DNA from: Spirochaetia bacterium
GTDB lineage: Bacteria > Spirochaetota > Spirochaetia > UBA9216
Assembly: GCA_963675665.1 (NCBI GenBank)
Contig: OY776510.1
Location: 4,480,001-4,544,000 of the forward strand
Reading direction: 5' to 3'
DNA length: 64,000 nucleotides
Shown piece by piece: positions 5,606-46,318 of the stretch. Position numbers and translations under genes: made by a program. Positions within the stretch are counted from its first letter, which is position 1; every line of letters begins with the position of its first letter. The notes under the pieces were generated by a model, which saw only the letters and a list, made by a program, of their open reading frames with translations, was not told the DNA's origin and ran no database searches.

Positions 5606-5618
5606 GATTTCTTCATAA

Positions 5619-6837: not shown

Positions 6838-6906
6838 TATTTCTTCTTCATTTTACACCCAACAGCCCAAATCACCTAATATTTTTATTTCATCTCAATT
6901 TCGTGC

Positions 6907-7052
6907 ATATAACGACAATTTGAGCTGCGCCCTCGCTCCTGGAGCGAAGCGGAAGGAATTGGCGTGATTCTGGAGTGTAGCGCGATCAGCGCGGAACGTC
7001 TCTGCCAGAATCATGACAATAGACGGCGACTGCTCCAAATTTTTTGTTAAAT
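6907..7052 (-). repeat. attC site (C25)
   Basis: ATATAAC...GTTAAAT family repeat. Confidence 0.92.
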
Positions 7053-7064
7053 GCCTTTCTTAGC

Positions 7065-7089
7065 AGACCGCACGACGGAGTCAAGGTCT
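7065..7089 (+). repeat. Trailer hairpin (C25)
   Basis: AGACCGCACGACGGAGTCAAGGTCT. Confidence 0.9.
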
Positions 7090-7097
7090 GGTTTCTA

Positions 7098-8240: not shown

Positions 8241-9240
8241 ATATTATTCCGCATAACATTCACAATTTTTCATTATCCATTTAGAACCGGTGAAACAGTT
8301 AATTTTTTTAACGCTTTTTCATAGAATCCAAAATCAGAATCTGAATATATAGTCTGTAAACCTTTAACTAATTCTAAATCATTCTTTTGTTCATATTCAA
8401 GAAGACCTTTATGTATAACTGTCCTATATAGTTTACATGATAAAGGAGACGTCATATATATTTTTTTAACCAAAGTACTACAAAACTTTTCTGAATCTAT
8501 TTGTTTTTTTGCAGGGAAAACTACATTTATTGTCTTATTAGGATCAATATTATTAACATTTACTCTTGTTGAAGAAAATATTATTCCATCAATATTACTA
8601 TTTCTTTGCACATGTTGCATTAATATTTGTGGGATAATATATTCTGGTTTAAAAGGCATCTGCCTTTCTTTTACTTTAATTTGACATGATGCAATAATAG
8701 GCCAAAGAATTAAATAACTATTTATTGTTTTAATTAATGTCTTAATTGTAATCCTTTCATCAAATTCTTCTTCCGGAAATTTATTCAAATATGATAATAG
8801 TATTTTATTTGTAACTGATATATTGAGCAAATTTACAGTATTATCTTCTGCTAATTCGAATTTAGAAATATGTATCTCATCAAATGATGGACGATCCATT
8901 TCCTCCCAACAGATGTAAGATGACGTTCCTAAATATAAAGCAGGATTTCCTGGTATACTAAAACGGTATGAATTTATGATTCTTCGCTTATTGTAAGGTA
9001 CATGAAATAAGTCTCCCATTTCTAACGATGGCAAGTCTGAAAGTCTTATTCTATATAATTCTTTGTATGGCATTAATTCTTTATCACGTTCAAGTAATTT
9101 AAAGCTATCAAGTACTGGATCTATTTTTTTCATAAGATAATTGAAACTATTATAAGAGGCGATTACATTTCCTTCTAAATAATGAGAAATAACCAATAAG
9201 ATTTTCTCTTCGACTTTTTTAATCATTTGATAATCATTTT

Positions 9241-10515: not shown

Positions 10516-10717
10516 AATCATTTTTATTTATTGTTATATGAGGGTTTTTATCAATAATGCCTTCAACAAATCTATTATATTTTTTAAAAACATGCTTTAA
10601 CCCTGTTGAAATATTTTCTGATGTAAGAACTATTGGAAATCCTATAATCTCATTTGAAAGTATCTCTTTTAATGTTTTCATACTAAACACCTTTTAGATT
10701 TTATGCTTTATTCTTTC

Positions 10718-10740
10718 GCCCGTCGGCCGGAGGTCCGGGC
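10718..10740 (+). repeat. Leader hairpin (C25)
   Basis: Exact 23-nt core. Confidence 0.9.
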
Positions 10741-10812
10741 GATTTCTTCTCCCCTATTTTACACCTCAAAACGGTTATCAGCTAACATTTTTATTGAATC
10801 AATCTAATGTGC

Positions 10813-10950
10813 ATTTAACGACGATTTGAGTAGCAAAATCGGCCGAGTCTTCGAGGCTTGGCGCAGTTCTGGAACGTAGCGCGATCAGCGCGGAGTGTCT
10901 CTGCCAGAACTGTGACAAAGATTTTGACTACTCCAAATCTCTTGTTATAT
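10813..10950 (-). repeat. attC site (C24)
   Basis: ATTTAAC...GTTATAT family repeat. Confidence 0.92.
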
Positions 10951-12044: not shown

Positions 12045-12109
12045 CCTTCACCTCATAATAATGACATCCAATCAAAATATTCATTATGACTAAATATGCA
12101 CTCTTCACA

Positions 12110-12132
12110 GCCCGTCGGCCGGAGGTCCGGGC
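12110..12132 (+). repeat. Leader hairpin (C24)
   Basis: Exact 23-nt core; flanks covary (ACA..TGT). Confidence 0.9.
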
Positions 12133-12204
12133 TGTTTCTTCTCACTTATTTTACACCCAACCAAAAAAATAACCTAACATTTTTATTTTTTCCTAATTTC
12201 ATGC

Positions 12205-12350
12205 ATATAACGACAAAATCAGTTGCGCCCTCGATCCTGAGCCGCAGGCGAAGGAATTGGCGTGATTCTGGAACGTAGCGCGATCAGCGCGGAGTGTCTC
12301 CGCCAGAATCATGACAATAGACGGCGACAACTGCATTTTTTTTGTTATAC
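12205..12350 (-). repeat. attC site (C23)
   Basis: ATATAAC...GTTATAC family repeat. Confidence 0.92.
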
Positions 12351-13537: not shown

Positions 13538-13679
13538 GTATAACGACAATTTTAGCTGCCTGGCGGCGCGCGTCTTCGCGCGCATTGGCGCGGTTTTAGA
13601 GCGTAGGCACGATCAGTGCCGTAGCGTCTCCGCTAAAACCGTGACAATAGCCAGGACTGCTACAAATTTCATGTTTTGT
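13538..13679 (-). repeat. attC site (C22)
   Basis: GTATAAC...GTTTTGT family repeat. Confidence 0.9.
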
Positions 13680-14308
13680 GTAACGACCCCATACCCACTA
13701 CTTTCTTTTATCTTAACAGTATCCTTTTTCTTACTTTGCCCCTTCTTTACTCAGCGTTCTCGCTGGGTTCATCCCAATTAATCATACAACAGTTTCATCT
13801 TTGCAGGTATTTTTATTTTCACTCAATAACTTCTACTCTGTTTTTTAGCATTTCTTTTCTTCATTTCCTTTTTATTCACTTTCAACATTTGGCCGCTAAA
13901 ATCTTTATACAGGTGAGCTGTAGTTTTTTTGAGAAGCTTAAAATAGGACCTATAGATACGAAATAGTTTTTTTCAATGCAAGGATATTATTTCATATAAC
14001 CGAACAGGGCTCCAGAAATGTTCATCATCTTTATGGGATATAAATCAAACAAGATTTCATAGAAAGAAACAGCTTTGGTTACTACGCTCTATTCTTAAAG
14101 ACACAAATACATTTCACGTCGTAGGTTATGGGAAATTATCGAAAACAGAATAATGAACTCCATAAACTTCTTTATACTATCTGCAAATTATTATTTTATC
14201 AAAGAACTAAATTAAACATTTTTTTTAATATGTTTTTCACTTATGTGTCATTCTAAACGTGAACCGTATAAAATCTTTATTTTAGCCCAATTCTCGTTTA
14301 CACAAAAC
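13673..14308. other. Gene-less cassette, long form (C22)
   Basis: No credible ORF; homologous to C1, C7, C8, C17 with ~145 bp extra. Confidence 0.8.
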
Positions 14309-15906: not shown

Positions 15907-16044
15907 ATTTAACGACCAAATCAGTTGCAAAATCGGCCGAGTCTTCGAGGCTTGGCGCAGTTCTGGAGTGAAGCGCGATCAGCGCTGAACGTCTCCGCCA
16001 GAACTGTGACAAAGATTTTGACAACTGCATTTGTCATGTTAAAT
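15907..16044 (-). repeat. attC site (C20)
   Basis: Identical to 879-1016. Confidence 0.92.
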
Positions 16045-16057
16045 GCCTTTTCTTATC

Positions 16058-16082
16058 AGACCGTACGGCGGAGCCAAGGTCT
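16058..16082 (+). repeat. Trailer hairpin (C20)
   Basis: AGACCGTACGGCGGAGCCAAGGTCT. Confidence 0.9.
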
Positions 16083-16132
16083 GATTTCTTTTGATATTTA
16101 TATTTTATAGCCAAGCTTCAAGTTCATTTTAT

Positions 16133-17506
16133 TCAATTTTCACACTGATTTATAAACTTTTCAACATATTTATAAATACTCTCATATTTTCTTGACTCAC
16201 TATCCTCTGATAAAAATATTTTAAATTCTTCTCTTGCTAAATTAAAATCTTCATGCTTGTAAAAGAATAACAAGCCTAAACAATAATGCAATTGATATTT
16301 CTCAGGCTCCTCATCTAATATCCCATATATAAATTTTTCACATTGTATATGTACATTATTAGCAGCTCTATTTCTAAAACCTAATTTATAAAAATTATAA
16401 GCTTTATCTAACTTCTCTTCATAAGCAAATAAAAATGCTTTACTATATGCCCATGTATAATCGCCGGTTGCTCTCTTCTTTGCTTCAAATAATCTTTCAT
16501 GTGCAACTTTTAAATTTCTTTCATGAAAATAAAAAATTGCACTAAGGGTACACATATCATAGCTCAAAGGACATAATTTTTCAGCTTCATGTACTTTTTC
16601 ACCTATTTTCTCCCAATTACATTCCCCCAAATATTCATTTATTGCAAAGAAGTGTATTTCCGCCATTAGAAATTCTTTATTATTTTTCTGTATACGTTCA
16701 AAATTGGTTTTTAATATTTCAGTATCACTTTTAATTTTGATTTGATTACATTTCTTATGCAATTTATATGCTATATCAATAAATCCATTATATGCACATG
16801 CTAATCCCAAAATATACAATGAGCCATAAGAAAATATAAGTGAATTCAGGCTGAAGCCAGTAAGTTCTTGATCATATGAAATCATTGAATTGCGAGGAAA
16901 TACTGAATACATATCTTGAATAATATTATTTTTCCTATCCAACGGTATAGTTTTATGAGAAATAGACTCATTAAATTCAATTACGTAATGCTCCTTACCA
17001 TTTTGAATTCTATTCCTTGCAACACCATATAAAATAAATTTTGCTTTACTCTTATCATGATATTTCTTTGCTAACAATTTATTATCATTAATTTTCTCAG
17101 AATGATATTCAGACAATGTAATCACTTTAATTTTCTTATCTACACTTTTTATACTTCTTTCAATTTCATCAAAAAAATCTTTTTTAATTTTCTCTCTAAC
17201 CTTATCATTATCTGTTCTAATCGCAAACAAAACTCCAATATCATTTTTTCTAAATTTTGGGATTCTCCTTAAATAAAGCCATATAAAAATGAGAAATATA
17301 TCTACTATACAAAAAACAATAATATTATTTATTATTAAATTCTTATTCGTTGATAATACTTCCAAAGCTGGTATATTATAATCATCAATGGATCCATACA
17401 ATTTGATTATCCAACTTATAAATAATAAGAATTGAACCCCTGTAATTGAAATTTTCCTTTCAAGGAGTAGTTTCATTCTGCGCAATGTATCATAACTATC
17501 TAACAT
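16133..17506 (-). CDS. Membrane-anchored TPR-like protein (C20)
   Basis: Differs from 1105-2478 by one residue (KIKSD vs KIESD). Confidence 0.75.
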   Translation of the reverse strand: MLDSYDTLRRMKLLLERKISITGVQFLLFISWIIKLYGSIDDYNIPALEVLSTNKNLIINNIIVFCIVDIFLIFIWLYLRRIPKFRKNDIGVLFAIRTDNDKVREKIKKDFFDEIERSIKSVDKKIKVITLSEYHSEKINDNKLLAKKYHDKSKAKFILYGVARNRIQNGKEHYVIEFNESISHKTIPLDRKNNIIQDMYSVFPRNSMISYDQELTGFSLNSLIFSYGSLYILGLACAYNGFIDIAYKLHKKCNQIKIKSDTEILKTNFERIQKNNKEFLMAEIHFFAINEYLGECNWEKIGEKVHEAEKLCPLSYDMCTLSAIFYFHERNLKVAHERLFEAKKRATGDYTWAYSKAFLFAYEEKLDKAYNFYKLGFRNRAANNVHIQCEKFIYGILDEEPEKYQLHYCLGLLFFYKHEDFNLAREEFKIFLSEDSESRKYESIYKYVEKFINQCEN

Positions 17507-17545
17507 TTTATAATCTCCGATTTTATTCTTAATAATTCTATCATC

Positions 17546-17568
17546 GCCCGTCGGCCGGAGGTCCGGGC
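17546..17568 (+). repeat. Leader hairpin (C20)
   Basis: Exact 23-nt core. Confidence 0.9.
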
Positions 17569-17639
17569 GATTTCTCTTACTTATTTTACACCCAGAACTC
17601 GAAAACGGCTAACAATTTCATCGAAACATCCCTAAGTGC

Positions 17640-17778
17640 ATTTAACGACGATTTGAGTAGCAAAATCGGCCGAGTCTTCGAGGCTTGGCGCAGTTCTGGA
17701 ACGCAGCGCGATCAGCGCGGAGTGTCTTTAGCCAGAACTGTGACAAAGATTTTGGCTACTCCAAATCTTTTGTTATAC
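17640..17778 (-). repeat. attC site (C19)
   Basis: ATTTAAC...GTTATAC family repeat. Confidence 0.92.
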
Positions 17779-20585: not shown

Positions 20586-20728
20586 TTATAATGACAATTT
20601 TAGCTGCCTGGCGGCGCGAGTCTTTCGAGCGCATTGGCGCGGGTTTAGAGCGTAGGCACGATCAGTGCCGTAGCGTCTCCGCTAAAACCGTGACAATAGC
20701 CAGGACTGCTACAAATTTCATGTTTTGT
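20586..20728 (-). repeat. attC site (C17) with mutated R' (GTT>ATT)
   Basis: TTATAAT instead of TTATAAC at left end. Confidence 0.88.
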
Positions 20729-21212
20729 GTAACGACCCCATACCCACTACTTTCTTTTATCTTAACAGTATCCTTTTTCTTACTTTGCCCATTCTTTACC
20801 CAGCGTTCTCGCTGGGTTCATCCCAATTAATCATACAACGATTTAATCTTTGCAGGTATTTTTATTTTTTACACTATAACTTCTTCTCTGTTTCTTAGCA
20901 TTTTACTTCTTCATTTCCGTCATTTTCATTTTCAACATTTGGCCGCTAAAATTTTATGCAGGTTAGCTGTGATTTTTTTGAGAAGCTTAAAATAGAACAT
21001 AGATATGAATACGTTTCACGTCGGAGGTTATGGGAAACTATTGAAAACAGGATGATTAACTCCATAAACTTCTTTATTTAACCTGCAAATTATTATTTTA
21101 TCAAAGAACTGAATCAAATATTTTCTTTTTAATATATTTTTCACTTATGTGTCATTCTAAACGGGAACCGTATAAAATCTTTATTTTAGCCCAATTCTCG
21201 TTTACACAAAAC
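20722..21212. other. Gene-less cassette, short form (C17)
   Basis: ~490-bp conserved non-coding family member. Confidence 0.85.
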
Positions 21213-24812: not shown

Positions 24813-25374
24813 GGTTTTCTTAAATATTATTAATAATTGAAACTTTGATTATCTAATTCTTGAGTTTTAATATATCCACCATAGACCCATCCATTAATAT
24901 TTTCTTTTCTAATATTTACCCATGGAAAATCCATATTATCCAATTTATATGATATTGGTGTAACTCCCAACATTTCAATTTCTTCATTCTCTTGCAATAA
25001 TCCAAGAATATCTGAATCAGTACTAGGTAGTTTTCTAATTCTAAGGTTTTTTGTATTACAATATCCTTTATAAGGTTTTTGATATTGATAATCAATATTA
25101 CGTGCTCCCATACTATCCATAACTCTTACAAATTCCGAATTTTCTCCATGCAACTTGATTGCAATAGCCAATGGGGACATATAATCATTAAGTAAATTAA
25201 CTGTTGTTATTTTTGCTTTATTTTCAATTAAGATTTTAAAAGCTTTAATATTGTTTTTCTTTATAGCAAATACTAATGGATTTTCAAAAGATACTTGTAT
25301 ATCAAAGTTATTTACATTAAATCCATATTTTATACACAAATCAGTATAGAGATCATTTTTTATTCTTATTGACT

Positions 25375-26649
25375 CATAGCTGTCCAAAATAAGGACTATT
25401 AATAGCCTGAATCCCTGGTTATAATGAATTGAGCGGGCAAGCTTAAATCATTACAACGGAAGGAAAACAGGCAATGAGTTATAAGAATAGCATTTTAAAT
25501 CAGATACTTCAAATCATTCCGAGACATGAATTTGAAAGATCTGTCAGAAAGTATAAAGGAGATTTTGCTTCAAAAGGATTCTCCTGTTGGGAACAATTTG
25601 TTTCAATGCTGTTTGCCCAATTTACAGGACAGACCGGACTTAGAGGCATAGAAACAGCATTGGATTCGATTAAAAACATGCTTTATCATTTGGGGGTAAA
25701 AAAGATTAAACGCTCAACACTTTCCTATGCAAATAACAACAGACCCTCAGAAATTTATGAAAATGTATTCAATAACCTGCTGACAAAGATCCTTAAAATG
25801 AAAAGGTCTCATAAGCATAGATTTAAAAATCCGCTGTACAGTGTTGATGCGACAACCATCGATTTATGCCTGTCAGTATTTCCATGGGCGAAGTTTAGAA
25901 AGAATAAAGGCGGAATCAAACTTAATGTAAAACTTGATCACAGCGGATATATTCCGGACTTTGTATCTGTTACAACAGCTCAAACCCATGAGCTTAATTC
26001 ACTCAAGAAAATGAAATTCAATAAAGGTGATGTAGTTGCATTCGATCGGGCCTATACAGATTTCAAATTATTTGCAAGTTATTGTATTGCAGGCATTTAT
26101 TTTATTACTCGTATGAAAAAGAATGCAGATTATAAAGTTTTTCAAAGAAATAATGTTTCAAAATATGAAAATATTTCATCAGATCAAATAATTGAAATGC
26201 GAGGATACTACACCAGCAAGAAGTGTCCACTCCAATTACGGCGAATTAGAATAAAAGATCCGGAAACAGGAAAATATATTGTAATTCTTACAAATCAGCT
26301 TGATTGGGCACCTACAACAGTTGCTGCTGTCTATAAGGACAGATGGCAGATAGAAATATTCTTCAAAACAATCAAACAGAACCTGAAAATAAAGAAGTTT
26401 TTTGGAACGACGAAAAATGCAGTAATGACTCAGATCTGGATAGCATTGATAACTCATCTGATGCTGCAATATCTGAAGATGTTATCTTCCGGTGGATGGA
26501 CTCATTATTCGCTTATGAAATTGCTTCCATCAATCCTGACGACCAGAAAAGATCTCTGGAATATTCTGAATAAACTACCGCCGCCCGGCAGAAATGAGCC
26601 AGGCTTAAAACTTCAAATGGAGCTGTTATGATTGTTTTGGACAGCTATG
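25375..26649 (+). mobile_element. IS4-family insertion sequence, copy 3
   Basis: Same IRs; 9-bp TSD TTATTGACT. Confidence 0.95.
25474..26631 (+). CDS. IS4-family DDE transposase
   Basis: Identical protein to other copies. Confidence 0.95.
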   Translation: MSYKNSILNQILQIIPRHEFERSVRKYKGDFASKGFSCWEQFVSMLFAQFTGQTGLRGIETALDSIKNMLYHLGVKKIKRSTLSYANNNRPSEIYENVFNNLLTKILKMKRSHKHRFKNPLYSVDATTIDLCLSVFPWAKFRKNKGGIKLNVKLDHSGYIPDFVSVTTAQTHELNSLKKMKFNKGDVVAFDRAYTDFKLFASYCIAGIYFITRMKKNADYKVFQRNNVSKYENISSDQIIEMRGYYTSKKCPLQLRRIRIKDPETGKYIVILTNQLDWAPTTVAAVYKDRWQIEIFFKTIKQNLKIKKFFGTTKNAVMTQIWIALITHLMLQYLKMLSSGGWTHYSLMKLLPSILTTRKDLWNILNKLPPPGRNEPGLKLQMELL

Positions 26650-26947
26650 TTATTGACTCATAAAATAAATAATTTGCTCTATTAATTTCACCAGGCATGA
26701 TATCCAAAGGTGATGCACCTTTATCAAGTAATAAATTTACAATTTCAATATTTTTATTGCTTGCTGCTATAAATATTGGTGATATTCTATCCCAAAACCA
26801 ATATTCTTCTACCCCCTTAACATCCGCCCCATTTCCTATTAAAAATTTAATAATTTCATTACTATTATTTTCTAAAGCATATTTAAATACTTTAGAATCC
26901 ATATCTGGATTAAAATTATATTCGCCTTTATAATTATTATATAATGT

Positions 26948-28222
26948 CATAGCTGTCCAAAATAAGGACTATTAATAGCCTGAATCCCTGGTTATAATGA
27001 ATTGAGCGGGCAAGCTTAAATCATTACAACGGAAGGAAAACAGGCAATGAGTTATAAGAATAGCATTTTAAATCAGATACTTCAAATCATTCCGAGACAT
27101 GAATTTGAAAGATCTGTCAGAAAGTATAAAGGAGATTTTGCTTCAAAAGGATTCTCCTGTTGGGAACAATTTGTTTCAATGCTGTTTGCCCAATTTACAG
27201 GACAGACCGGACTTAGAGGCATAGAAACAGCATTGGATTCGATTAAAAACATGCTTTATCATTTGGGGGTAAAAAAGATTAAACGCTCAACACTTTCCTA
27301 TGCAAATAACAACAGACCCTCAGAAATTTATGAAAATGTATTCAATAACCTGCTGACAAAGATCCTTAAAATGAAAAGGTCTCATAAGCATAGATTTAAA
27401 AATCCGCTGTACAGTGTTGATGCGACAACCATCGATTTATGCCTGTCAGTATTTCCATGGGCGAAGTTTAGAAAGAATAAAGGCGGAATCAAACTTAATG
27501 TAAAACTTGATCACAGCGGATATATTCCGGACTTTGTATCTGTTACAACAGCTCAAACCCATGAGCTTAATTCACTCAAGAAAATGAAATTCAATAAAGG
27601 TGATGTAGTTGCATTCGATCGGGCCTATACAGATTTCAAATTATTTGCAAGTTATTGTATTGCAGGCATTTATTTTATTACTCGTATGAAAAAGAATGCA
27701 GATTATAAAGTTTTTCAAAGAAATAATGTTTCAAAATATGAAAATATTTCATCAGATCAAATAATTGAAATGCGAGGATACTACACCAGCAAGAAGTGTC
27801 CACTCCAATTACGGCGAATTAGAATAAAAGATCCGGAAACAGGAAAATATATTGTAATTCTTACAAATCAGCTTGATTGGGCACCTACAACAGTTGCTGC
27901 TGTCTATAAGGACAGATGGCAGATAGAAATATTCTTCAAAACAATCAAACAGAACCTGAAAATAAAGAAGTTTTTTGGAACGACGAAAAATGCAGTAATG
28001 ACTCAGATCTGGATAGCATTGATAACTCATCTGATGCTGCAATATCTGAAGATGTTATCTTCCGGTGGATGGACTCATTATTCGCTTATGAAATTGCTTC
28101 CATCAATCCTGACGACCAGAAAAGATCTCTGGAATATTCTGAATAAACTACCGCCGCCCGGCAGAAATGAGCCAGGCTTAAAACTTCAAATGGAGCTGTT
28201 ATGATTGTTTTGGACAGCTATG
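26948..28222 (+). mobile_element. IS4-family insertion sequence, copy 4
   Basis: Same IRs; 9-bp TSD ATATAATGT. Confidence 0.95.
27047..28204 (+). CDS. IS4-family DDE transposase
   Basis: Identical protein to other copies. Confidence 0.95.
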   Translation: MSYKNSILNQILQIIPRHEFERSVRKYKGDFASKGFSCWEQFVSMLFAQFTGQTGLRGIETALDSIKNMLYHLGVKKIKRSTLSYANNNRPSEIYENVFNNLLTKILKMKRSHKHRFKNPLYSVDATTIDLCLSVFPWAKFRKNKGGIKLNVKLDHSGYIPDFVSVTTAQTHELNSLKKMKFNKGDVVAFDRAYTDFKLFASYCIAGIYFITRMKKNADYKVFQRNNVSKYENISSDQIIEMRGYYTSKKCPLQLRRIRIKDPETGKYIVILTNQLDWAPTTVAAVYKDRWQIEIFFKTIKQNLKIKKFFGTTKNAVMTQIWIALITHLMLQYLKMLSSGGWTHYSLMKLLPSILTTRKDLWNILNKLPPPGRNEPGLKLQMELL

Positions 28223-28407
28223 ATATAATGTTATAAATCTTTTTAGATCATTTTGTTTTATTGCAAGATTAAACTCATCCCCATAATTTTCCATTGAAAA
28301 AATATTCATCACTTTAAATAAAAGCAATATAAAAATTATACAAAGATGTTTGTTCATAATGCTTTCTCTTCTCCAATCTTATATAAATCAACAATTATGT
28401 AATTATC

Positions 28408-28430
28408 GCCCGTCGGCCGGAGGTCCGGGC
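28408..28430 (+). repeat. Leader hairpin (C13)
   Basis: Exact 23-nt core. Confidence 0.9.
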
Positions 28431-28503
28431 AATTTCTTCTTGCTTATTTTACACCCAGAACACGAAATCTACTATTATTTTTATTTGAACACCCTTTAAG
28501 TGC

Positions 28504-28642
28504 ATTTAACGACGATTTGAGTAGCAAAATTGTTCGGCGTCTTCGCCGAATTGGCGCGATTCTGGAGTGAGGGCCATTGCCCGAACGTCTTTAGCCAGAA
28601 TCGTGACAATAAATTTTGACTACTCCAAATCTCATGTTTTAC
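28504..28642 (-). repeat. attC site (C12)
   Basis: ATTTAAC...GTTTTAC family repeat. Confidence 0.9.
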
Positions 28643-29251
28643 GTAACTGCCCATTATTGCAGTTCATCTTTTAACGATATTGGGACTATTACAACTAACC
28701 GCCCCAAATATATACCCAGCGATCAGCTGGGTTTCCTTGTTACATCTTTTTATCAGGTTACTTCTTTGCTGGTCAACGATGATATATCAATATTGCATTT
28801 TAACACGTTTCATTAACATTCTTATATTATTTATTTTTGATTATTCTGTTCGCGCCATATAAATTTTTCTACAGGATGAGAATAGTTATTACAGATACGT
28901 TGCAGTTTATTCCAGGTTTTTTTAAGTTATACAATTCTTATAATTATCATATCATCATTTTCCCAAGGGTTTTAAGAATGTTCATCAGCCTTATGCATTA
29001 GATATATTAAGTATTGTGATTCAAAACCAGATATTTTGTAAAATCGAAACTTTTTATAGGTTAGTTGGCTATCTATCAATACAATTGGAACGCATCTGAA
29101 ACATGATGTAGTTCAATTATTCTCTTTCTTAGACCTGCAAACTTTCGTTTTATCAAAGAACTGGTTTATCTATAATATGTTTTTTGATATTTTCATCTAC
29201 TGTTAGCTGCATAACTTCTGTTTTCAGCCTAAAATGCAGTTTAGGTAAAAC
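28636..29251. other. Gene-less cassette, divergent long form (C12)
   Basis: No credible ORF; colinear short motifs shared with C22. Confidence 0.75.
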
Positions 29252-29383
29252 GACGATTTGAGTAGCAAAATTGTTCGGCGTCTTCGCCGAATTGGCGCGA
29301 TTCTGGAGTGAGGGCCATTGCCCGAACGTCTTTAGCCAGAATCGTGACAATAAATTTTGACTACTCCAAATCTCTTGTTAAAT
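29245..29383 (-). repeat. attC site (C11)
   Basis: GTAAAAC...GTTAAAT family repeat. Confidence 0.92.
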
Positions 29384-29396
29384 ACCACTAATATCT

Positions 29397-32935: not shown

Positions 32936-33078
32936 ACATAACGACAATTTTAGCTGCCTGGCGGCGCGAGTCTTTCGAGCGCATTGGCGCGGTTTTAGAG
33001 CGCAGGCACGATCAGTGCCGTAGCGTCTCCGCTAAAACCGTGACAATAGCCAGGACTGCTACAAATTTCATGTTTTGT
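32936..33078 (-). repeat. attC site (C8)
   Basis: ACATAAC...GTTTTGT family repeat. Confidence 0.9.
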
Positions 33079-33561
33079 GTAACGACCCCATACCCACTAC
33101 TTTCTTTTATCTTAACAGTATCCTTTTTCTTACTTTGCCCATTCTTTACCCAGCGTTCTCGCTGGGTTCATCCCAATTAATCATACAACGATTTAACCTT
33201 TGCAGGTATTTTTATTTTTACACTATAACTTCTTCTCTGTTTCTTAGCATTTTACTTCTTCATTTCCGTCATATTCATTTTAAACATTTGGCCGCTAAAA
33301 TTTTATGCAGGTTAGCTGTGATTTTTTTGAGAAGCTTAAAATAGAACATAGATATAAATACGTTTCACGTCGGAGGTTATGGGAAACTATCGAAAACAGG
33401 ATGATTAACTCCATAAACTTCTTTATTTAACCTGCAAATTATTATTTTATCAAAGAACTGAATCAAATATTTTCTTTTTAATATATTTTTCACTTATGTG
33501 TCATTCTAAACGGGAACCGTATAAAATCTTTATTTTAGCCCAATTCTCGTTTACACAAAAC
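33072..33561. other. Gene-less cassette, short form (C8)
   Basis: ~490-bp conserved non-coding family member. Confidence 0.85.
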
Positions 33562-33697
33562 GACAATTTTAGCTGCCTGGCGGCGCGAGTCTTTCGAGCG
33601 TATTGGCGCGGGTTTAGAGCGTAGGCACGATCAGTGCCGTAGCGTCTCCGCTAAAACCGTGACAATAGCCAGGACTGCTACAAATTTCATGTTTTGT
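33555..33697 (-). repeat. attC site (C7)
   Basis: ACAAAAC...GTTTTGT family repeat. Confidence 0.9.
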
Positions 33698-34181
33698 GTA
33701 ACGACCCCATATCCAATACTTTCTTTTATCTTTATATTATTCCTTATCTTTTTTTCACTCTTCTTTACCCAGCGTTCTCGCTGGGTTCATCCCAATTAAT
33801 CATACAACGATTTCATCTTTGCAGGTATTTTTATTTCTTACACCATAACTACTGTTCTGTTTCTTAGCATTTTACTTTTTCATTTCCGTCATTTTCATTT
33901 TCAACATTTGGCCGCTAAAATTTTACGCAGGTTAGCTGTGATTTTTTTGAGAAGCTTAAAATAGAACATAGATACGAATACGTTTCACGTCGGAGGTTAT
34001 GGGAAACTATCGAAAACAGGATGATTGACTCCATAAACTTCTTTATTCAACCTGCAAATTATTATTTTATCAAAGAACTGAATCAAATATTTTCTTTTTA
34101 ATATGTTTTTCATTTATGTGTCATTCTAAACGGGAACCGTATAAAATCTTTATTTTAGCCCAATTCTCGTTTACACAAAAC
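33691..34181. other. Gene-less cassette, short form (C7)
   Basis: ~490-bp conserved non-coding family member, tandem with C8. Confidence 0.85.
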
Positions 34182-35487: not shown

Positions 35488-36999
35488 TCAGTTAAGATAA
35501 ATATTCCAGGGAAGAAGCTCCTGCCAATCTTCACTGGACTTCATCAACGGAGCTTCGGTAAATACTTTTCTCAGATAAACATAAGGGTTGAGATCGTTTT
35601 GCTTTGCTGTTTCAACAAGTGAATAAATCCCGCAAGAACTCTCAGCACCTTTTGGGCTGCCGGCAAACAACCAGTTTTTCCTGCCCAACACAAACGGCCT
35701 GATAGCATTTTCACAGGCATTATTATCCGGAGTCAAATAAGGTGATTCAAGATAATTTACAAGTTTGCTCCATTGCCCAATTGTATATGATATCGCTTTT
35801 CCGAGTTCAGTCGAAGGAACAACATTATGCTGCCTTTTCTCAAGCCAGGAACTGAACTTGGCCAATAGCGGTTCTGCCTTCTTTTTTCTTTCTGCAAGAA
35901 ACTCGGGTTCACTTAAGTTTTTAGCTCTGAGTTCATTCTCTATCAAATACAGTTTCTGAATATATTTCAGCCCTTCAGCAGCACTGCCAGGTTTCTTGGA
36001 TACTCTTGATGCATCAAAGAATTTCCGTCTTGCATGAGCAAAACAACCGGCATGAATTATATCTGGATAATCTTTCAACGCTGTAACATATGCTTCATAA
36101 CCGTCAGTCTGAAGATAGCCGCTGAATCCGTCCAGAAAACTGCGAATATTCTTAGAACCCCTCGTTTCATGATATTCATATAGAATTGCAACTTGCCCCG
36201 GAGGCCCCCCTCGGGCAAGCCACATATAGGAGTTTCGAGTAGCAGGCCTATCCGGTTCATTGTGAACCTGTATTCTCGTTTCATCCATCTGCATAACCGA
36301 ACCGGTTTTCAGATGTTCTTTCATCAGTTCAAGCAGGATTATAAGAGCTTCATATGCCTGTCTTTGCCAGTTGCTCATATCCTGTCGGCTTATGCTGATC
36401 CCTATTCGCTCAAATCTCTTTTCCTGCCGGTAGAAAGGCAAATGATCTACATATTTATTTACAAGCAAAAATGCAAGGAGCTCGGGTGTTACTATGCTTT
36501 TGGGAAAGATTGTGGGAGCAGTCGGGGCTATCCGCACCGCAGGTTTATCTTCATCTCCGCTGCCTTCACAAGTCTTACAGGCATATTTGGGTCTGATGGT
36601 TCTTTCTACCCACATCTGTTCCGGTACAACTTTTATTCGTTCGGATATTTCTTCGCCTATTCTAACCAGTTCTGCTCCGCAAGCGCATTTCTTCTCTTCT
36701 TCGGGTATATCAATAAGGATTTCTTCACGGGGAAGATTCTCGTTTATCTTCTTTCGACCAGGTTTCTTTTTGGTATAGGATTCTACCTTCTGAGTTTCAG
36801 ATTCTTCTTCGGGAGCAATATCCGGTTCACTATCAAAAAGTAATATCTGAGCGGCTGTGTCTTTCTCGCTGGAACGATTATATTTCTTGAACAATTCAAG
36901 CTTGAAACGCTCTTCCAGCGCCTGGTATTTCGTTGCCCATTTTCGTTCAATATCTTTGATGTATTGCTGTACTTCTTCAGGAAGCTTTTCAACATCCAT
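35488..36999 (-). CDS. tnpC: IS66 DDE transposase TnpC
   Basis: MDET, QTDGY, CFAHARRKF, DNNACENAIRP, GRKNWLF. Confidence 0.95.
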   Translation of the reverse strand: MDVEKLPEEVQQYIKDIERKWATKYQALEERFKLELFKKYNRSSEKDTAAQILLFDSEPDIAPEEESETQKVESYTKKKPGRKKINENLPREEILIDIPEEEKKCACGAELVRIGEEISERIKVVPEQMWVERTIRPKYACKTCEGSGDEDKPAVRIAPTAPTIFPKSIVTPELLAFLLVNKYVDHLPFYRQEKRFERIGISISRQDMSNWQRQAYEALIILLELMKEHLKTGSVMQMDETRIQVHNEPDRPATRNSYMWLARGGPPGQVAILYEYHETRGSKNIRSFLDGFSGYLQTDGYEAYVTALKDYPDIIHAGCFAHARRKFFDASRVSKKPGSAAEGLKYIQKLYLIENELRAKNLSEPEFLAERKKKAEPLLAKFSSWLEKRQHNVVPSTELGKAISYTIGQWSKLVNYLESPYLTPDNNACENAIRPFVLGRKNWLFAGSPKGAESSCGIYSLVETAKQNDLNPYVYLRKVFTEAPLMKSSEDWQELLPWNIYLN

Positions 37000-37043
37000 A
37001 TCTTAAGTCTAGCATTTTTTGATCCGAGGGTAAATTCCTTATA

Positions 37044-37427
37044 CTATGTTATTTCAGAATATTTTAATTCTGTATGAGCATTCCAGAAATCTATACCCTT
37101 TAGAAGCATGTCAAGCTCAGTCTGCTTCAGCTCTATTGCATCCTGATTATTTTTCGGCCATGGAAAGCGATGTTTTTCAAGTTTCTTCTGCCATAAACAA
37201 AACCCGTTTTTATCCCAATAGAGAGCTTTCAAATTCCGTCTCTCTTTATTGCAAAATAAAAATAGATTGCCTGATAGTGGATCTGATTCAAGCTCATCAG
37301 CTACTATCATAGATAAGCCATTTATTGCTTTTCTCATATCGGTACTGCCTGGTTTTATGAATATCTTTATCTTGGAGAAATCAGGAAACACTTTTCGTTT
37401 CCACCAGGTCCATCGCTGCCATTGCAT
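37044..37427 (-). CDS. tnpB: IS66 accessory protein TnpB (true start probably GTG near 37391)
   Basis: TDMRKAINGL, LFLFCN, LYWDKNGFCLWQKKLE. Confidence 0.92.
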   Translation of the reverse strand: MQWQRWTWWKRKVFPDFSKIKIFIKPGSTDMRKAINGLSMIVADELESDPLSGNLFLFCNKERRNLKALYWDKNGFCLWQKKLEKHRFPWPKNNQDAIELKQTELDMLLKGIDFWNAHTELKYSEIT

Positions 37428-38211: not shown

Positions 38212-40452
38212 TCATGATCTGCTAAAAAGATCATGTATATCAGAAATATAGTTCACTCCTTTATAGTCACCATCATCGTCAGGTCTATAATTATCTAAGA
38301 AACTATCAACCATCCCATCGATGTCTATTTCCGATTCAATTAACTCTTTTAAATCTATATCAATTTCTCCTATTTCGGTATTTGATACTAGAAATAACGA
38401 TTCATCTAATTTCTCTTCAAAATAATTTACTATCCCAGTGTAATCAACATTTAAATCTTCACGAAAATCGATATAATTTCCTATCTCAATTTCATTTTCT
38501 AAATCACTTATTTCATATGATAAGTATTCACCAATAATTTCTTTCCTAAAATCAATAAAATCTTGATCATATTGATCTAATTTTAAATAGATTTCTGTGA
38601 TAAGATTTATTTCCTTATATGAAATGCTTTCACCACTACTAATAATCTCAATTAATTTATTTGTTGTGAGATTGTTTAAATTTATAAAAATCTCATTAAT
38701 AAGAAAAAGAAGCTTTGATATTTCAGAGATACCAGCACAATCAGCTAAAACTGCATCTATCATATTTGACACAGCTTCCGTATCATTATTTATTTCATAA
38801 TAAATAAAACATAAATATATTGTATAATTACTTTCAAAATCAGTATTATAATTCCCAAATACATTTTCTATGATTGTGCAATATTGTTCATATTTAATAA
38901 GTTCACTTTTGTAAATTGAGTATATTTGTTCTAATGATTTTATAGTATTTAATGATTGCATAATTAATATAATTTCATCAATTTCACCTACATAATTTCT
39001 AAGAATATAATCTGATATAGATGGATTAAACACTGTATAATCAATTATTCCAGCACTCATATTTTTAACAATCATAGATTTTGTAGACAATTTTATTATC
39101 GTATCAAATCTATAATCTATTGTTTTTGATTCTTCGATCTTTTTTAGACTACAATATTCTTTATATGCTTTTTTTAAATCTTCTTCTCCAATTTTACCAC
39201 CATTAAATACTACCAAGAATACAACACTTCTTATATAAATATTGCTTTGCACATCAAGATATTTCTCCCAAATATCTGCAGGATTATTCAATCTATCAAT
39301 AATTGAAATCCAATAATTTACAAGATCAGTATCGATCCTATCAATATCAGTAATAAACTCAATTAACCTAGGATTATAATTCCTATGTAAAATTACTTTC
39401 ATATAATTCGAATCTTTATAAAATTCATCAATGTAATCATCACCTAAATTACTAAACCAAATATGATTATATAAAATTCGGGCTTTATCCATTATAGATA
39501 AATCATTCATAGTCATTAAGAATTCATTCTTGTTTAATTTTTTGTCATTAAATACTGGACTAACATGTAAACCTTTATTTATTATGTTTGTTCTTGAAGT
39601 TAAAATAAAGATTTTATTCTTGGCCCTATTAATTCTTTCAATAAAATTCATTATATGCGTATCTTTTCTATTTTCTATTGCTTCAAAATAATTACTACCT
39701 AGAAAATCATCGAAATAAAATATTTGTTTGGAATCTTTATCAAATAAATCCTCCCCTTCTTTAACACCTTCTTCAATTGCTATAAACTCGTAATCATGTG
39801 CTAAATAATGCAAGCATAAATTATTTGCTAAGGTTGTCTTACCAATTCCTGGTTCTCCAGAAATTATTATCACCTTATTTCTTTTTAAATGTTCTAATGC
39901 ACGATAATGATTTTCAGTATAAACATATTTATTAGAATTTAACTTAATATTTTCAATAATAAACTCGCTACGACCTTTAATTGCATTTTTAAGAATTCTT
40001 GATAATACTGTTGAGCTATTAATCCATAATTTATAGTGCTTTTCTTCGATTTGTTTATATTCACTTAAGAAATCATTAAGATCCTCACAACCCCAAATAT
40101 CTGATTCAATTTTTATATAAGGAGCAAAAATTGACTTTATTTTAGTTTTATTCGCTCTTGATAAGGGTACAGATGTTACAAATATATATTTAGCTGGTTT
40201 TAGTTTCTTAACTTTTAAAGCCTCTTTGTGTTCTAAATCATATAATAATTTTTTTAATCCGGATTGATAATAGTGTTTACATTGTAAGATTTCTTCTTTC
40301 CTATCAATGTTAAAATATCGTCCATCAACCCCTGCATCTTTGCCTGGTTTAAAACGTTCTATTCGCTTGTTTGTAACTTTAGTAACTAAATCACAAACAA
40401 GATATTCAAATTCTTTATCGTTTAAACTGCTAAAGGTATAATCCATATCCAA
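38212..40452 (-). CDS. Mrr-like restriction endonuclease fused to nSTAND3-type NTPase (C5)
   Basis: EFEYLVCDL...GKDAGVD...QCKHY; GEPGIGKT; FDDFLG; LTSR; NYNPRLIE. Confidence 0.82.
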   Translation of the reverse strand: MDMDYTFSSLNDKEFEYLVCDLVTKVTNKRIERFKPGKDAGVDGRYFNIDRKEEILQCKHYYQSGLKKLLYDLEHKEALKVKKLKPAKYIFVTSVPLSRANKTKIKSIFAPYIKIESDIWGCEDLNDFLSEYKQIEEKHYKLWINSSTVLSRILKNAIKGRSEFIIENIKLNSNKYVYTENHYRALEHLKRNKVIIISGEPGIGKTTLANNLCLHYLAHDYEFIAIEEGVKEGEDLFDKDSKQIFYFDDFLGSNYFEAIENRKDTHIMNFIERINRAKNKIFILTSRTNIINKGLHVSPVFNDKKLNKNEFLMTMNDLSIMDKARILYNHIWFSNLGDDYIDEFYKDSNYMKVILHRNYNPRLIEFITDIDRIDTDLVNYWISIIDRLNNPADIWEKYLDVQSNIYIRSVVFLVVFNGGKIGEEDLKKAYKEYCSLKKIEESKTIDYRFDTIIKLSTKSMIVKNMSAGIIDYTVFNPSISDYILRNYVGEIDEIILIMQSLNTIKSLEQIYSIYKSELIKYEQYCTIIENVFGNYNTDFESNYTIYLCFIYYEINNDTEAVSNMIDAVLADCAGISEISKLLFLINEIFINLNNLTTNKLIEIISSGESISYKEINLITEIYLKLDQYDQDFIDFRKEIIGEYLSYEISDLENEIEIGNYIDFREDLNVDYTGIVNYFEEKLDESLFLVSNTEIGEIDIDLKELIESEIDIDGMVDSFLDNYRPDDDGDYKGVNYISDIHDLFSRS

Positions 40453-40483
40453 TTAAATTCCTATTTATAATAATACATTCTTA

Positions 40484-40506
40484 GCCCGTCGGCCGGAGGT
40501 CCGGGC
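40484..40506 (+). repeat. Leader hairpin (C5)
   Basis: Exact 23-nt core. Confidence 0.9.
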
Positions 40507-40575
40507 TATTTCTTACTAATTTTACACCCAGCAACAGAAATATCCTAACATTTTTATTATTCTCCCATTTCGTGC

Positions 40576-40714
40576 ATTTAACGACGATTTGAGTAGCGAA
40601 ACCGGCCGAGTCTTCGAGGATTGGCGCAGTTCTGGAACGCAGCGCGATCAGCGCGGAGTGTCTTTAGCCAGAACTGTGACAAAGGTTTTGACTACTCCAA
40701 ATCTCTTGTTATAC
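40576..40714 (-). repeat. attC site (C4)
   Basis: ATTTAAC...GTTATAC family repeat. Confidence 0.92.
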
Positions 40715-42298: not shown

Positions 42299-43219
42299 TC
42301 ATCCAAATAGCGTCATTTGCTTATTTTCTTTATAAATACTTTTAAAAATAGTATCTTCAATTTCTAATTTATCTATATTAGAGAAAATGTTTTCAGATAA
42401 ATAAATTGATTCATAGGTCATATCAGTGTTATTATTTAGTGTAGCTTGAGATGAACGCCCCACCTCTAATTCTATTCTTTTTAGTTTCAAATGTTCAGGT
42501 AATAATTCTCCATATTTTTTATTACCTAATCTTCCATCATAACTAATAATGTATTTAATATTTTTATCATTTAATATCTCTAAAGATTCTATAAATTCGT
42601 TTCGACCTAATCCATTCATATATCTATTATCTCTTTTATTAGAAACGCCTTCATATGGAGGGTCCATATAAACAAGATCCTTTTCATTTGCTTTAAAAAT
42701 AATATCTCTATAATCGGTACTAAAAATTTCAGTTTTTCCATTCAAAATCGAAGAAGCATTCAATATTTCATTTGCCATTCTCTTTGGATGTTTTCCTTTT
42801 CTTCGATTATCAGGGCTTTGGTTAAATTCGCCTTTTGTATTATATCGTACAGCAGCTTTAACACATCTAGCTAATAAATATAGAAGATATCCAGACTCCT
42901 TTGTCTCATTAAATTTATCTCGAATTAAATTATAATAATTTTTTTCATCACCTAATTGTTCATTCCAGTAATATGAATATTTTTCGATTATATCATTTGG
43001 ATTATTTATTATAGCGCCCCATAAATCCATCAACGGTTTGTTAATATCATTGATTATTACTTTATCAACTTTATTATAATAAAGCGATGCAATACTTATT
43101 GCAGCTGATCCAGCAAATGGCTCTATCAATGAATGTATGTTGTTTGGGTAGTAATCTATTATAGTTTGTGCTAACGCTCTTTTACTACCCTGATATGGTA
43201 TAGGTTGTGGCATCTTCAT
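42299..43219 (-). CDS. Dam/D12-class N6-adenine DNA methyltransferase (C3); start revised to 43219
   Basis: PYQGSK, EPFAGS, IND, YMDPPY. Confidence 0.92.
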   Translation of the reverse strand: MKMPQPIPYQGSKRALAQTIIDYYPNNIHSLIEPFAGSAAISIASLYYNKVDKVIINDINKPLMDLWGAIINNPNDIIEKYSYYWNEQLGDEKNYYNLIRDKFNETKESGYLLYLLARCVKAAVRYNTKGEFNQSPDNRRKGKHPKRMANEILNASSILNGKTEIFSTDYRDIIFKANEKDLVYMDPPYEGVSNKRDNRYMNGLGRNEFIESLEILNDKNIKYIISYDGRLGNKKYGELLPEHLKLKRIELEVGRSSQATLNNNTDMTYESIYLSENIFSNIDKLEIEDTIFKSIYKENKQMTLFG

Positions 43220-43225
43220 AATCTT

Positions 43226-43254
43226 ATTATATCCCATATTTTACTATTTTGCAC
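43226..43254 (-). promoter_or_regulatory. Cassette-borne promoter, predicted leaderless transcript (C3)
   Basis: GTGCAA-17-TATAAT, 6 nt to ATG 43219. Confidence 0.55.
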
Positions 43255-44198: not shown

Positions 44199-44340
44199 TG
44201 ATAACGACAATTTTAGCTGCCTGGCGGCGCGAGTCTTTCGAGCACATTGGCGTGATTCTGGAGTGGAGCGCGATCAGCGCGAAACGTCTTTAGCCAGAAT
44301 CATGACAATAGCCAGGACTGCTACAAATTTCATGTTTTGT
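44199..44340 (-). repeat. attC site (C1)
   Basis: TGATAAC...GTTTTGT family repeat. Confidence 0.9.
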
Positions 44341-44824
44341 GTAACGGCCCCATACTCACTACTTTCATCTACATTCATAATTATCCTTTTTCTTACTTTG
44401 CCCCTTCTTTACCCAGCGTTCTCGCTGGGTTCATCCCAATTAATCATACAACGATTTCCTCTTTGTAGGTATTTTTATTTTTAAACAATAACTACTGTTC
44501 TGTTTCTTAACATTTTACTTCTTCATTTCCGTAATATTCATTTTAAACATTTGGCCGCTAAAATTTTACGCAGGTTAGCTGTGATTTTTTTGAGAAGCTT
44601 AAAATAGGACATAGATACGAATACGTTTCACGTCGGAGGTTATGGGAAACTATCGAAAACAGGATGATTAACTCCATAAACTTCTTTATTCAACCTGCAA
44701 ATTATTGTTCTATCAAAGAACTAAATCAAATATTTTCTTTTTAATATGTTTTTCACTTATGTGTCATTTTAAACGGGAACCGTATAAAATCTTTATTTTA
44801 GCCTAATTCTCTTTTACACAAAAC
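44334..44824. other. Gene-less cassette, short form, first position (C1)
   Basis: Family homology ends exactly at AAC 44824. Confidence 0.85.
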
Positions 44825-44860
44825 ATATTATATTAAGTTGTTTTACCTATAAAAACTACC
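44818..44860 (-). other. attI site (crossover G/TT at 44824/44823)
   Basis: Cassette homology stops at G|TTTTGT with no attC beyond; minus strand GGTAAAACAACTTAATATAATATG/TT; lies between array and intI. Confidence 0.8.
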
Positions 44861-45040: not shown

Positions 45041-46318
45041 ATGAACTCAGGTATTAAATATATGATGAAGAATAGAATTGATGATACTGTGATTTTGGAC
45101 CGGTTCAAGACTCATTTAATTAACAACACAGGTATGGAACAAAGATATATTGAACATTATCTTAAATGGATTGCGCTGTATCTGAATGAACAGGTAAAGT
45201 CCACTAAACAGTTAAGTGCAATAGCATTCAGTAATGATTTGGCGCTGAGTAATAAATATGCTGACTAGCAGATAAAACAAGCAAAAACAGCAGTTAATTT
45301 GTTCATTCAGTTCCGAAGTTCAAATTATTCCATTCCCAAACCGATAATAAAAGCCGATGTTTGCTGGGAACAATTAAAAGAACAAAATCGGAGACAACTT
45401 CGATTGATGCACAAGTCACTTCAAACGGAAAAAACATATCAGCGCTGGCTTGTTGATTTTATTACATATACAGAGACGTCTGCTGATTTGATATCAGCAG
45501 ACGATCTAAAGCGTTACCTTACCTATCTCGCGGTTAAAAGAAAGGTTGCGCAAGCTACTCAAAAGCAGGCATTCAATGCTCTTCTTTTCTTTTACCGACA
45601 TATACTTCACATACGTATTGAAAATCTTGATGGAACAATTATGTCAAAACAATCTTCAAGGCTTCCTCTGGTTTTAACCAGGAATGAAGTAAAACGAGTT
45701 CTATACCAGTTGAAGGATCCATATTTACTAATGGCTGAGCTGATATATGGAAGCGGGATACGATTGAATGAATGCCTGAATTTAAGAATTAAAGATCTTG
45801 ATTTTGAACGGGGAAGCTTGTTGATACTATCCGGTAAAGGAAATAAAGACAGACTGACTCTTATGCCGGAAAAAATAAAGACTAGAATTTCAAAACATCT
45901 CAATTGTGTCAAATCTTTGTATGAAGCTGATCGTCAGAATAATATCTCGGGCGTTATGCTTCCTGATGCCCTGTGTAGAAAATATCCGAATGCATCAACA
46001 ACCTGGTCTTGGTTCTGGGTATTTCCTTCTCACAAACTTTCTATAGATCCCTATTCAAATACGGTTCGAAGATTTCATATATATCCGAGTACTTTGCAAA
46101 AGGCTTTTAAGACAGCAGTTTCCTCCTCCGGCATCACCAAAAATGCAAGCATTCATACTTTGCGGCATAGTTTTGCCACCAGCCTGATTGAAGCAGGATA
46201 TGACATAAGGACTATTCAGGAGCTCCTCGGGCATTCGGATCTTAGTACCACAATGATCTATACTCATGTAGCGAATAAAAACAAACTTGGCGTGAAGAGC
46301 CCGTTTGACAGTCTCTGA
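45041..46318 (+). pseudogene. intI: Integron integrase with in-frame TAG at 45266-45268 (catalytic part 45299-46318 intact)
   Basis: YGSGIRLNE, GKGNKDR, integron-specific insertion (LPDALCRKYPNA...WFWVFPS), HTLRHSFAT, LLGHSDLSTTMIYTH; the two ORFs are in the same frame. Confidence 0.92.

Follow-up and report, generated by a model that had tools for sequence, protein, structure and literature searches.

What does an integron cassette do when it carries no gene? The question is raised by a 64,000-nucleotide stretch of DNA from a Spirochaetia bacterium (assembly GCA_963675665.1, contig OY776510.1, positions 4480001-4544000; hereafter the window, numbered from its first letter), which holds part of a large sedentary chromosomal integron array that extends further upstream. 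Within the window the array covers positions 1-44826, with 28 attC sites of ~135-145 nt each (spanning 882-44345) beside an attI region and a candidate integron integrase. This tyrosine recombinase is encoded at 45299-46318 on the + strand, divergently from the cassettes (Phage_integrase, 1.5e-37; Phage_int_SAM_4, a SAM-like domain, 9.5e-19). The cassette genes of the array lie on the - strand, and the cassettes of the window are filled by open reading frames (ORFs), apart from one that we call C12 (28507-29248) and a family of related copies. An initial annotation had proposed that C12 contains a large structured antisense RNA or single-stranded DNA element of ~620 nt. Our analysis suggests that C12 and the family are non-coding cassettes that probably act as a folded single strand.

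C12 has the boundaries of an integron gene cassette: its R'' box, GTAAAAC, pairs with its R' box, G|TTTTAC. Its attC site (28507-28643, with the + strand as bottom strand) has the apex GGGC-CATT-GCCC and lacks the usual GATCA loop. The body that follows (28644-29251) has the R' core TTTTAC and, on the sense (-) strand, no ORF common to the family. The family itself is ~620 nt long and ORF-less, with five copies in the window and three further upstream, 92-94% alike and spread over ~96 kb of the array. The window copies are a long form of 764 nt with ~145 nt extra (13541-14305), a short copy at 20590-21209, a tandem pair (32939-33558 and 33558-34178) and a copy in the first position beside attI (44202-44826). 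Together with C12 these make nine copies in two lineages, all in one genome.

The two lineages share only ~50% overall identity and align poorly outside a few islands. Nevertheless, C12 used alone as an nhmmer query against the 5.15-Mb genome found the family (E = 0.009). A colinear chain of exact matches of at least 8 nt between C12 and the 33558 copy was matched in length by 0-1 of 300 dinucleotide shuffles, although the same test against the T-rich long copy at 13541 was reached by 21 of 300. All of the colinear islands named in the initial annotation, which described C12 as largely unalignable, are present at the coordinates given there and follow the same order in the family. One of them, AATGTTCATCAGCCTTATG (28977-28995, + strand), is shared only with the long copy (at 14017). 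The best kept is TTTTATCAAAGAACTG (29148-29163), which reads CAGTTCTTTGATAAAA on the - strand, with TGATAAAAC there resembling an extended -10 element; the core of the island is similar to a CRISPR repeat of type II-C. To these we add TAATATGTTTTT (29173-29184), which is A-rich on the sense strand and lies upstream of the promoter-like block discussed below. The cassette starts are also alike. Among 27 cassettes compared end to end, only four family cassettes and C12 start with TTTT, the other 22 starting with TTA; the family copy beside attI likewise starts with TTTT, which is a further derived trait common to C12 and the family.

C12 and the family are gene-less on the cassette sense strand. 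No stop-to-stop frame on the - strand is common to the two lineages, and the best-kept part, the 3' module, has stops in every - strand frame of all three sequences examined. The island TTTTATCAAAGAACTG falls in different frames within two open + strand frames. If the shared motifs were residues of one protein reading frame, the structural interpretation would fail; no such frame exists on the - strand, and the + strand approaches it weakly, with a short frame open over two of the motifs described next. The claim that the cassette is gene-less thus stands for its sense strand, with this qualification on the other. A 39-aa - strand ORF in the short copies was rejected as a candidate gene: it is truncated in the long copy, absent in C12, and its differences are mostly amino-acid-changing.

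The islands that are kept in both lineages include three helices on the + strand. H1 is a hairpin about 75 nt from the attC site, ACCCAGC-GATCA-GCTGGGT in C12 (28714-28732) and ACCCAGCG-TTCT-CGCTGGGT in the family. H2 is a 9-bp long-range helix in which TTTGCAGGT is complementary to ACCTGCAAA across 232 nt in the short copies and 368 nt in C12, in agreement with the complementarity over 230-370 nt that had been reported, so that the helix would close a domain of this size. In C12 its left arm, TTTGCTGGT (28765-28773), has one T.T mismatch with the right arm, ACCTGCAAA (29133-29141). P3, which emerged from the present analysis, is a two-tier hairpin (29083-29118) with an outer AATTGGA/TTCAATT stem, an inner GCATC/GATGT stem and the loop TGAAACAT in C12. 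Its inner stem has 4-5 bp and its 8-nt loop reads GAAAACAG or TGAAACAT, while its outer stem changes from TATGGG/TCCATA in the family to AATTGG/TCAATT in C12. This contains two compensatory pairs, T-A to A-T and G-C to T-A. The spacing of these elements is also kept. The stretch that begins with H1 and ends with the H2 left arm measures 60 nt in each of the six copies in the window. C12 and the family also agree in how far P3 lies from ACCTGCAAA and how far ACCTGCAAA lies from the island TTTTATCAAAGAACTG.

On our alignment of the copies (A3), 94.4% of 179 helix cells are paired, compared to 36-46% after shifting the 3' partners by 1-3 columns. Both the minimum-energy and the centroid folds of the + strand contain H1 and H2 in the 33558 copy, whether it is folded as RNA or as DNA. 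The C12 + strand forms H1 and H2 in the RNA fold, but in the DNA fold only H1 is clear, since the attC sites on either side are near-identical and pair together. We conclude that the interpretation as a structured element is partly supported: the support extends to three helices, which are kept in both lineages and pair better on the + strand, and does not reach a single unit of ~620 nt.

The pattern of substitution within the family points to the same strand. The eight copies differ by 93 substitutions, including 37 transversions. In the 60 helix columns there are eight substitutions and all are transitions (six C>T and two G>A; by our arithmetic, 0.60^8 = 0.017). Seven of the eight keep or improve the pair on the + strand, compared to two of eight on the - strand. 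Two substitutions that create G.T pairs on the + strand, ACTCAGC and ATCTGCAAA, had been noticed before; they are real, but both are carried by the long copy at 13541-14305 and not by the copy at 20590 to which they had been assigned.

This bias is the one shown by the attC sites of the array. The R' box is G|TTRRRY when read on the sense (-) strand of the cassettes, and the + strand is therefore the attC bottom strand. Folding bears this out: the + strand folds better in 28 of 28 attC sites (mean -55.8 kcal/mol, versus -46.5 on the - strand), and the sites together contain 88 G.T pairs on the + strand versus 37 on the - strand. The apical loop is GATCA, which contains GATC, in 23 of the 28 sites, GGGC-CATT-GCCC in four and TATCA in one; GCGATCAGC is found in 17. 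The loop of the C12 hairpin is therefore, as had been claimed, the usual attC apical loop. With a perfect stem of at least 4 bp, the array contains 20 GATCA-loop hairpins. Nineteen are attC apices, and H1 of C12, in the same orientation, is the remaining one and the only GATCA-loop hairpin outside an attC site. H1 is not the apex of a decayed second attC site, a candidate that we rejected when its flanks were found not to pair.

The comparison of attC sites also revealed how cassette ends pair in this array. In 27 of 27 cassettes compared, the first bases at the cassette end pair over 7-10 bp with the inner end of that cassette's attC (for example at 1011-1021 and 29378-29389), so that the attC R stem here exceeds the classical 7 bp. 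In 14 of the 27 the pairing of the R stem extends 2-6 bp past a single bulged base or a short mismatch. A further helix that seemed to join the ends of the family cassettes, with two apparent compensatory pairs, turned out to be this general extension of the R stem, usually with one bulge, and was dropped.

Given these observations, we tentatively propose, at somewhat less than even confidence for the two statements jointly, that C12 and the eight-copy family represent two lineages, now diverged, of a single non-coding integron cassette and that selection keeps nucleic-acid structure on the + strand, the attC bottom strand. As to the form in which this strand would act, the initial annotation had left RNA and single-stranded DNA side by side. 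A single-stranded DNA stage fares modestly better, with a + strand RNA a close second, given that the attC sites have the + strand as their bottom strand and that all 28 of them share its G.T bias. We lean to this role because the strand bias is identical to that of the attC sites, because H1 mimics their apex, and because of the copy pattern, with eight copies that include a tandem pair and one next to attI. In such a scheme, a single-stranded bottom strand would fold both at the attC sites, for the integrase, and along the cassette body. Folding of the body would shorten the distance between the two flanking attC hairpins and, in C12, H1 would offer an additional GATCA apex. The outcome would be an altered frequency of cassette excision and re-insertion, which could explain how a non-coding cassette came to be multiplied. 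The cassette family, the absence of sense-strand ORFs, the kept helices and their strand bias are observed; what we infer from them is the formation of these helices in vivo, their formation as DNA and not as RNA, and any influence on recombination.

Several observations weigh against this interpretation. Cumulative GC skew places the origin at around 0.8 Mb and the terminus at around 3.5 Mb, making the + strand here the template of the leading strand, which is seldom single-stranded. This is the orientation of the bottom strand described for large chromosomal integrons. Only two lineages are available, so there are just two compensatory pairs, too few to show significant covariation: 10 of 500 shuffles reached the count of pairs changed on both sides and 3 of 500 reached the covariation score. 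Neither H1 nor H2 covaries, and H2 of C12 has its T.T mismatch. C>T is the commonest + strand change everywhere (23, versus 15 G>A), and the call of the strand from six of seven G-C-pair events has, by our arithmetic, p of ~0.16 once this excess is allowed for. Fold energies are not distinctive evidence: the z-scores of two cassettes are -2.47 and -1.72 on the + strand (-0.85 and -0.63 on the - strand), compared to -2.37 to +1.08 on the + strand for eight coding controls of the same size, one of which lies at -2.37. A reading frame of the + strand that takes in H1 and the left arm of H2 stays open up to the LIIQ position of the family in nine of nine copies, and through the H2 left arm in eight. 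Gene-less cassettes tested elsewhere are mostly promoters, according to PMC11014356 and PMC6557892. Finally, the searches made found no relative outside the source genome, so no wider comparison can be drawn.

Those searches covered several collections. Against 100 relatives, a covariance model built on the 3' module recovered the nine own copies only. A metagenome pattern scan gave six matches, all reading as coding DNA, and a viral contig scan gave 13 chance matches; plasmids and phages gave none. Rfam had no match in the window at gathering score, and at lax thresholds C12 and the long copy gave chance-level hits (E 0.47-2.3); a group II intron remnant or other known RNA was accordingly set aside. 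BLAST of the family body against 60 relatives gave short chance matches in coding DNA and a single notable one, to a CRISPR array in a genome of the same class and another family (G054). This array consists of 24 repeats, each of 36 nt, separated by spacers of 30-31 nt, and it adjoins cas2, cas1 and a 1455-aa Cas9 (RuvC_III, 1.2e-32; HNH_4, 2.5e-19). A trans-activating CRISPR RNA (tracrRNA) lies just upstream of cas9 and divergent from it, with an anti-repeat, a nexus-like AAGGCTAT and a terminator (GC hairpin and T run). The locus (504-2060, 2166-7787 and 7786-7875 there) is a complete type II-C system in which the array and cas9-cas1-cas2 are read in opposite directions; the repeat has TAAAAT at its end. 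The core of the repeat matches the island in 20 of 21 bases, and the whole repeat in 25 of 36 for the family and 21 of 36 for C12. In one genome per species, a 20-nt pattern occurs at 72 places, just one of which, in G054, is an array; the other 71 are single and show no further likeness. In a scan of 401 genomes of this class, two stand out, G054 with 24 matches and the source genome with 9, and among the 150 listed of 295 places elsewhere in the class none has fewer than two mismatches. As a rough estimate, a chance match to a CRISPR repeat has a probability of 1e-4 or less.

Among the other explanations for the kept sequence, a possible though doubtful one is a promoter cassette, in which the contiguous kept block on the sense strand would be the promoter. 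The block reads AAAAACATATTA ... CAGTTCTTTGATAAAA(T/C) ... 5 nt ... TTTGCAGGT, corresponding to the islands at 29133-29184: an A-rich upstream part is followed by an extended -10-like TGATAAAAT, and a transcript would run from near TTTGCAGGT into the attC site and the next cassette. Such a promoter would restart expression within a long array, with copies distributed across ~96 kb of it, and it is compatible with a folded strand, since both could hold. The -10-like element, TGATAAAAT in the family and TGATAAAAC in C12, stands at a constant 5 nt from TTTGCAGGT, and a scan placed TTGATT-17-AATAAT at the island in each copy of the tandem pair, on the - strand (34086-34058 and 33466-33438). Promoter-like matches as a whole, however, do not exceed those in shuffled sequence in two scans (6 versus 4.4, sd 2.2; 6 versus 3.9, sd 2.1). 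C12 has no match at the island, lacking the -35 and AATAAT and with a -10 that ends in C, and the kept part of the block is mostly spacer rather than hexamers. Precedent favors this explanation, as PMC11014356 reports sense-strand promoter activity in 8/10, 3/4 and 11/13 gene-less Vibrio cassettes and PMC6557892 reports promoter activity of ORF-less Treponema cassettes, although the former also describes such promoters as not predictable in silico. What a promoter leaves unexplained are H1, P3, the fixed spacings and substitutions that break - strand pairs. Another view, which we consider unlikely, is that these are functionless, decaying empty cassettes whose copies are passengers of the integrase and whose islands are leftovers. 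Confinement to one genome among those searched, near-neutral variation among copies (with 1-nt indels and a 145-nt presence/absence) and ordinary fold energies are all as decay would predict. Yet colinear identical runs of 9-16 bases with kept spacing are unexpected at ~50% identity, as the shuffles of the chain with the 33558 copy indicate, and the two compensatory pairs between lineages and the lack of any transversion in helix columns also speak against decay.

A small hydrophobic protein of ~50-60 aa, from a + strand gene that would run against the other cassette genes, has about the same low likelihood as decay, if marginally less. The frame, 71 codons from stop to stop in C12 (28647-28862, with a TTG at 28680), would make H1 (Y-P-A) and the H2 left arm (L-C-R/W) residues of one product, which could be a membrane peptide resembling a type I toxin. 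Besides being open in all nine copies as described, and throughout in C12 even though it lacks the LIIQ, this frame scores 45 by BLOSUM between C12 and the 32939 copy in the same nucleotide register, compared to 22 and 23 for the other two frames. That score was reached by none of 200 whole shuffles, though by 33 of 1000 in which the islands were held fixed; although the C12 loop is 1 nt shorter, H1 and the H2 left arm also still span an equal length. Against the 33558 and 13541 copies, on the other hand, the frame is not best or weakly best ([36,29,30] and [27,23,33]). Its base composition shows no codon periodicity (p = 0.28 to 0.87), in contrast to equal-sized pieces of five real cassette genes (p = 8.6e-5 to 0.074). 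One copy has a TGA within the kept part, and the frames, 70-109 codons from stop to stop, have four different C-terminal ends and, upstream of an indel, different reading frames in two sub-lineages. There is no start codon or ribosome-binding site common to the copies and no homologue among the clustered proteins searched, and changes within the family in the kept part are ~7 altering or stopping versus 2 silent (counted by reading A3). Compared with a type I toxin-antitoxin locus, in which a conserved small hydrophobic ORF with start codon and ribosome site is accompanied by an antisense RNA, the open + strand frame shows a hydrophobic stretch, no codon-phase signal, a stopped copy and no common start. 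The CRISPR likeness is less probable still as an explanation. The island would be a copy of the type II-C repeat (-) or its complement (+), acting on the Cas9 system of neighboring spirochaetes either as a repeat mimic or as a substitute for tracrRNA that pairs with CRISPR RNA (crRNA). The sole notable match of the family among 60 relatives did fall on a 24-repeat array beside cas9-cas1-cas2 and a tracrRNA, with the core match and the restriction to two genomes given above. But the first seven bases of the repeat, adjacent to the spacer, are unmatched, the match of C12 is poor, and the rest of the G054 locus has no likeness to the cassette. With the G054 Cas9 as query, no Cas9 was found in the source genome, whose only array is of another type, and neither the 77 spacers of that array nor 22 of G054 match the cassettes. 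A more specific form, equally remote, is that the island in a + strand RNA, a near-perfect complement of the repeat over 21 nt, would pair with crRNA repeats better than their own tracrRNA does, making the cassette a tracrRNA-mimicking RNA anti-CRISPR that travels among defence cassettes. We keep the likeness as a lead, not as an explanation.

A folded bottom strand, our preferred interpretation, can be compared with known systems. The gene-less cassettes of Vibrio (NAR 2024, PMC11014356) and oral Treponema (Sci Rep 2019, PMC6557892) are likewise bounded by attC sites, ORF-less and located in large chromosomal arrays. The Treponema cassettes also come from a spirochaete, and the family described here bears a promoter-like block on its sense strand. 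Those cassettes are defined by measured promoter activity, whereas C12 and the family are known from sequence alone. A term search of PMC11014356 gave no occurrence of "secondary structure", and kept helices are not discussed in the text so searched. The kept helices share their pairing strand and G.T tolerance with attC sites, and H1 of C12 has the attC GATCA apex in the same orientation. However, H1 has no R or L boxes or long flanking arms, and H2 and P3 have no counterpart in attC. Like solitary CRISPR repeat units and RNA anti-CRISPRs (Nature 2023, PMC10651486), the island is alone, distant from cas genes and accompanied by a promoter-like element. It differs in matching at most 25 of 36 bases, in missing the spacer-proximal end with its seven unmatched bases, in being carried by an integron cassette and in having no cognate Cas9 in the source genome; it does not qualify as such a unit. 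Nor does it qualify as a tracrRNA, since the cassette has only the 21 anti-repeat-like nucleotides and lacks both the nexus and the terminator of the true tracrRNA of G054. The word "integron" does not occur in the main text of PMC10651486.

A non-coding integron cassette of Xanthomonas that reportedly encodes a small RNA is another parallel, although C12 and the family resemble no Rfam family. Gene-less integron cassettes are common and, to our knowledge, promoter activity is the sole function tested for them so far. Such cassettes, and promoter and small-RNA roles for them, are already known. For kept bottom-strand helices and an attC-apex mimic in a cassette body, we met no precedent in the parts of the literature that our searches covered, and the combination is new to us. 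If the body is indeed kept because it folds together with attC, cassette sequence outside attC could tune recombination, and the integrase could be carrying some "empty" cassettes as selfish passengers. A real CRISPR-repeat likeness would mean a link between the cassette pools of integrons and conflicts that involve CRISPR. All of this is drawn from nine copies of two lineages in one genome.

Some further observations concern C12 and its surroundings. Contigs from four sequencing runs follow C12 up to 29057 and then continue into unrelated sequence, a 19-nt piece of which is absent from the source genome; a partial C12-like piece may occur in another context in those samples. Contigs from two runs of a second organism cover the neighboring cassettes to ~99% and the C12 body hardly at all; none joins reliably across it, with joint sides below 30, and we draw nothing from them. 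The attI region contains GTTGTTTTACCTATAAAAAC (44836-44855, + strand), which is like the C12 sense-strand start, GTCGTTTTACCTAAAC, in inverted orientation; it may be the L box of attI or a chance likeness. We also dropped resemblances, read by eye, to a sigma-54 promoter, to a Bacteroidetes-type promoter, to a DnaA box and to an IHF-like site (agreeing at 8 of 9 specified consensus positions). The CRISPR array of the source genome (contig positions 2309554-2315000) has 79 repeats of 32 nt, GTCGCTCCCTTCGCGGGAGCGTGGATTGAAAC, and one adjacent pair of identical spacers.

Defence-type genes are abundant among the cassettes of the array (1-44200). They include STAND NTPases, among them an nSTAND3 protein with an Mrr-like nuclease (38212-40452), AAA_14/DUF4143 and ATPase_2/DUF234 proteins, a Schlafen/AlbA_2 protein, an HNH protein together with a D12 (Dam-type) methylase, an AbiEii-like ATPase and a DUF2971 protein. 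The D12 adenine methylase cassette lies at 42299-43237. Three toxin-antitoxin pairs are also present (ParE/Phd, Gp49/HTH and BrnT-like). Four identical copies of an insertion sequence that encodes a 385-aa DDE_Tnp_1/DUF4372 transposase lie within cassettes (3073-4330, 9240-10497, 25374-26631 and 26947-28204), one of them in the cassette adjoining C12, and an IS66 element lies inside another (35488-37427).

Repetition in the array is not confined to the gene-less family. One cassette of 1733 nt, whose 457-aa ORF belongs to no Pfam family, occurs twice (882-2615 and 15910-17643), with equal cassette and ORF lengths and 300 nt at the attC end that are 100% identical; coding cassettes are therefore also duplicated. 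A repeated element of ~130 nt stands at the sense-strand 5' end of 8-10 cassettes (762-896, 2496-2629, 6793-6924, 10696-10830, 12088-12222, 17524-17657, 28386-28520, 40462-40593 and others). It begins directly after the R' box and is closed, just before the start codon, by a GC-rich hairpin, GCCCGTCGGCCGGAGGTCCGGGC on the + strand. Such an element could serve these cassettes as a common leader or as a signal for translation.

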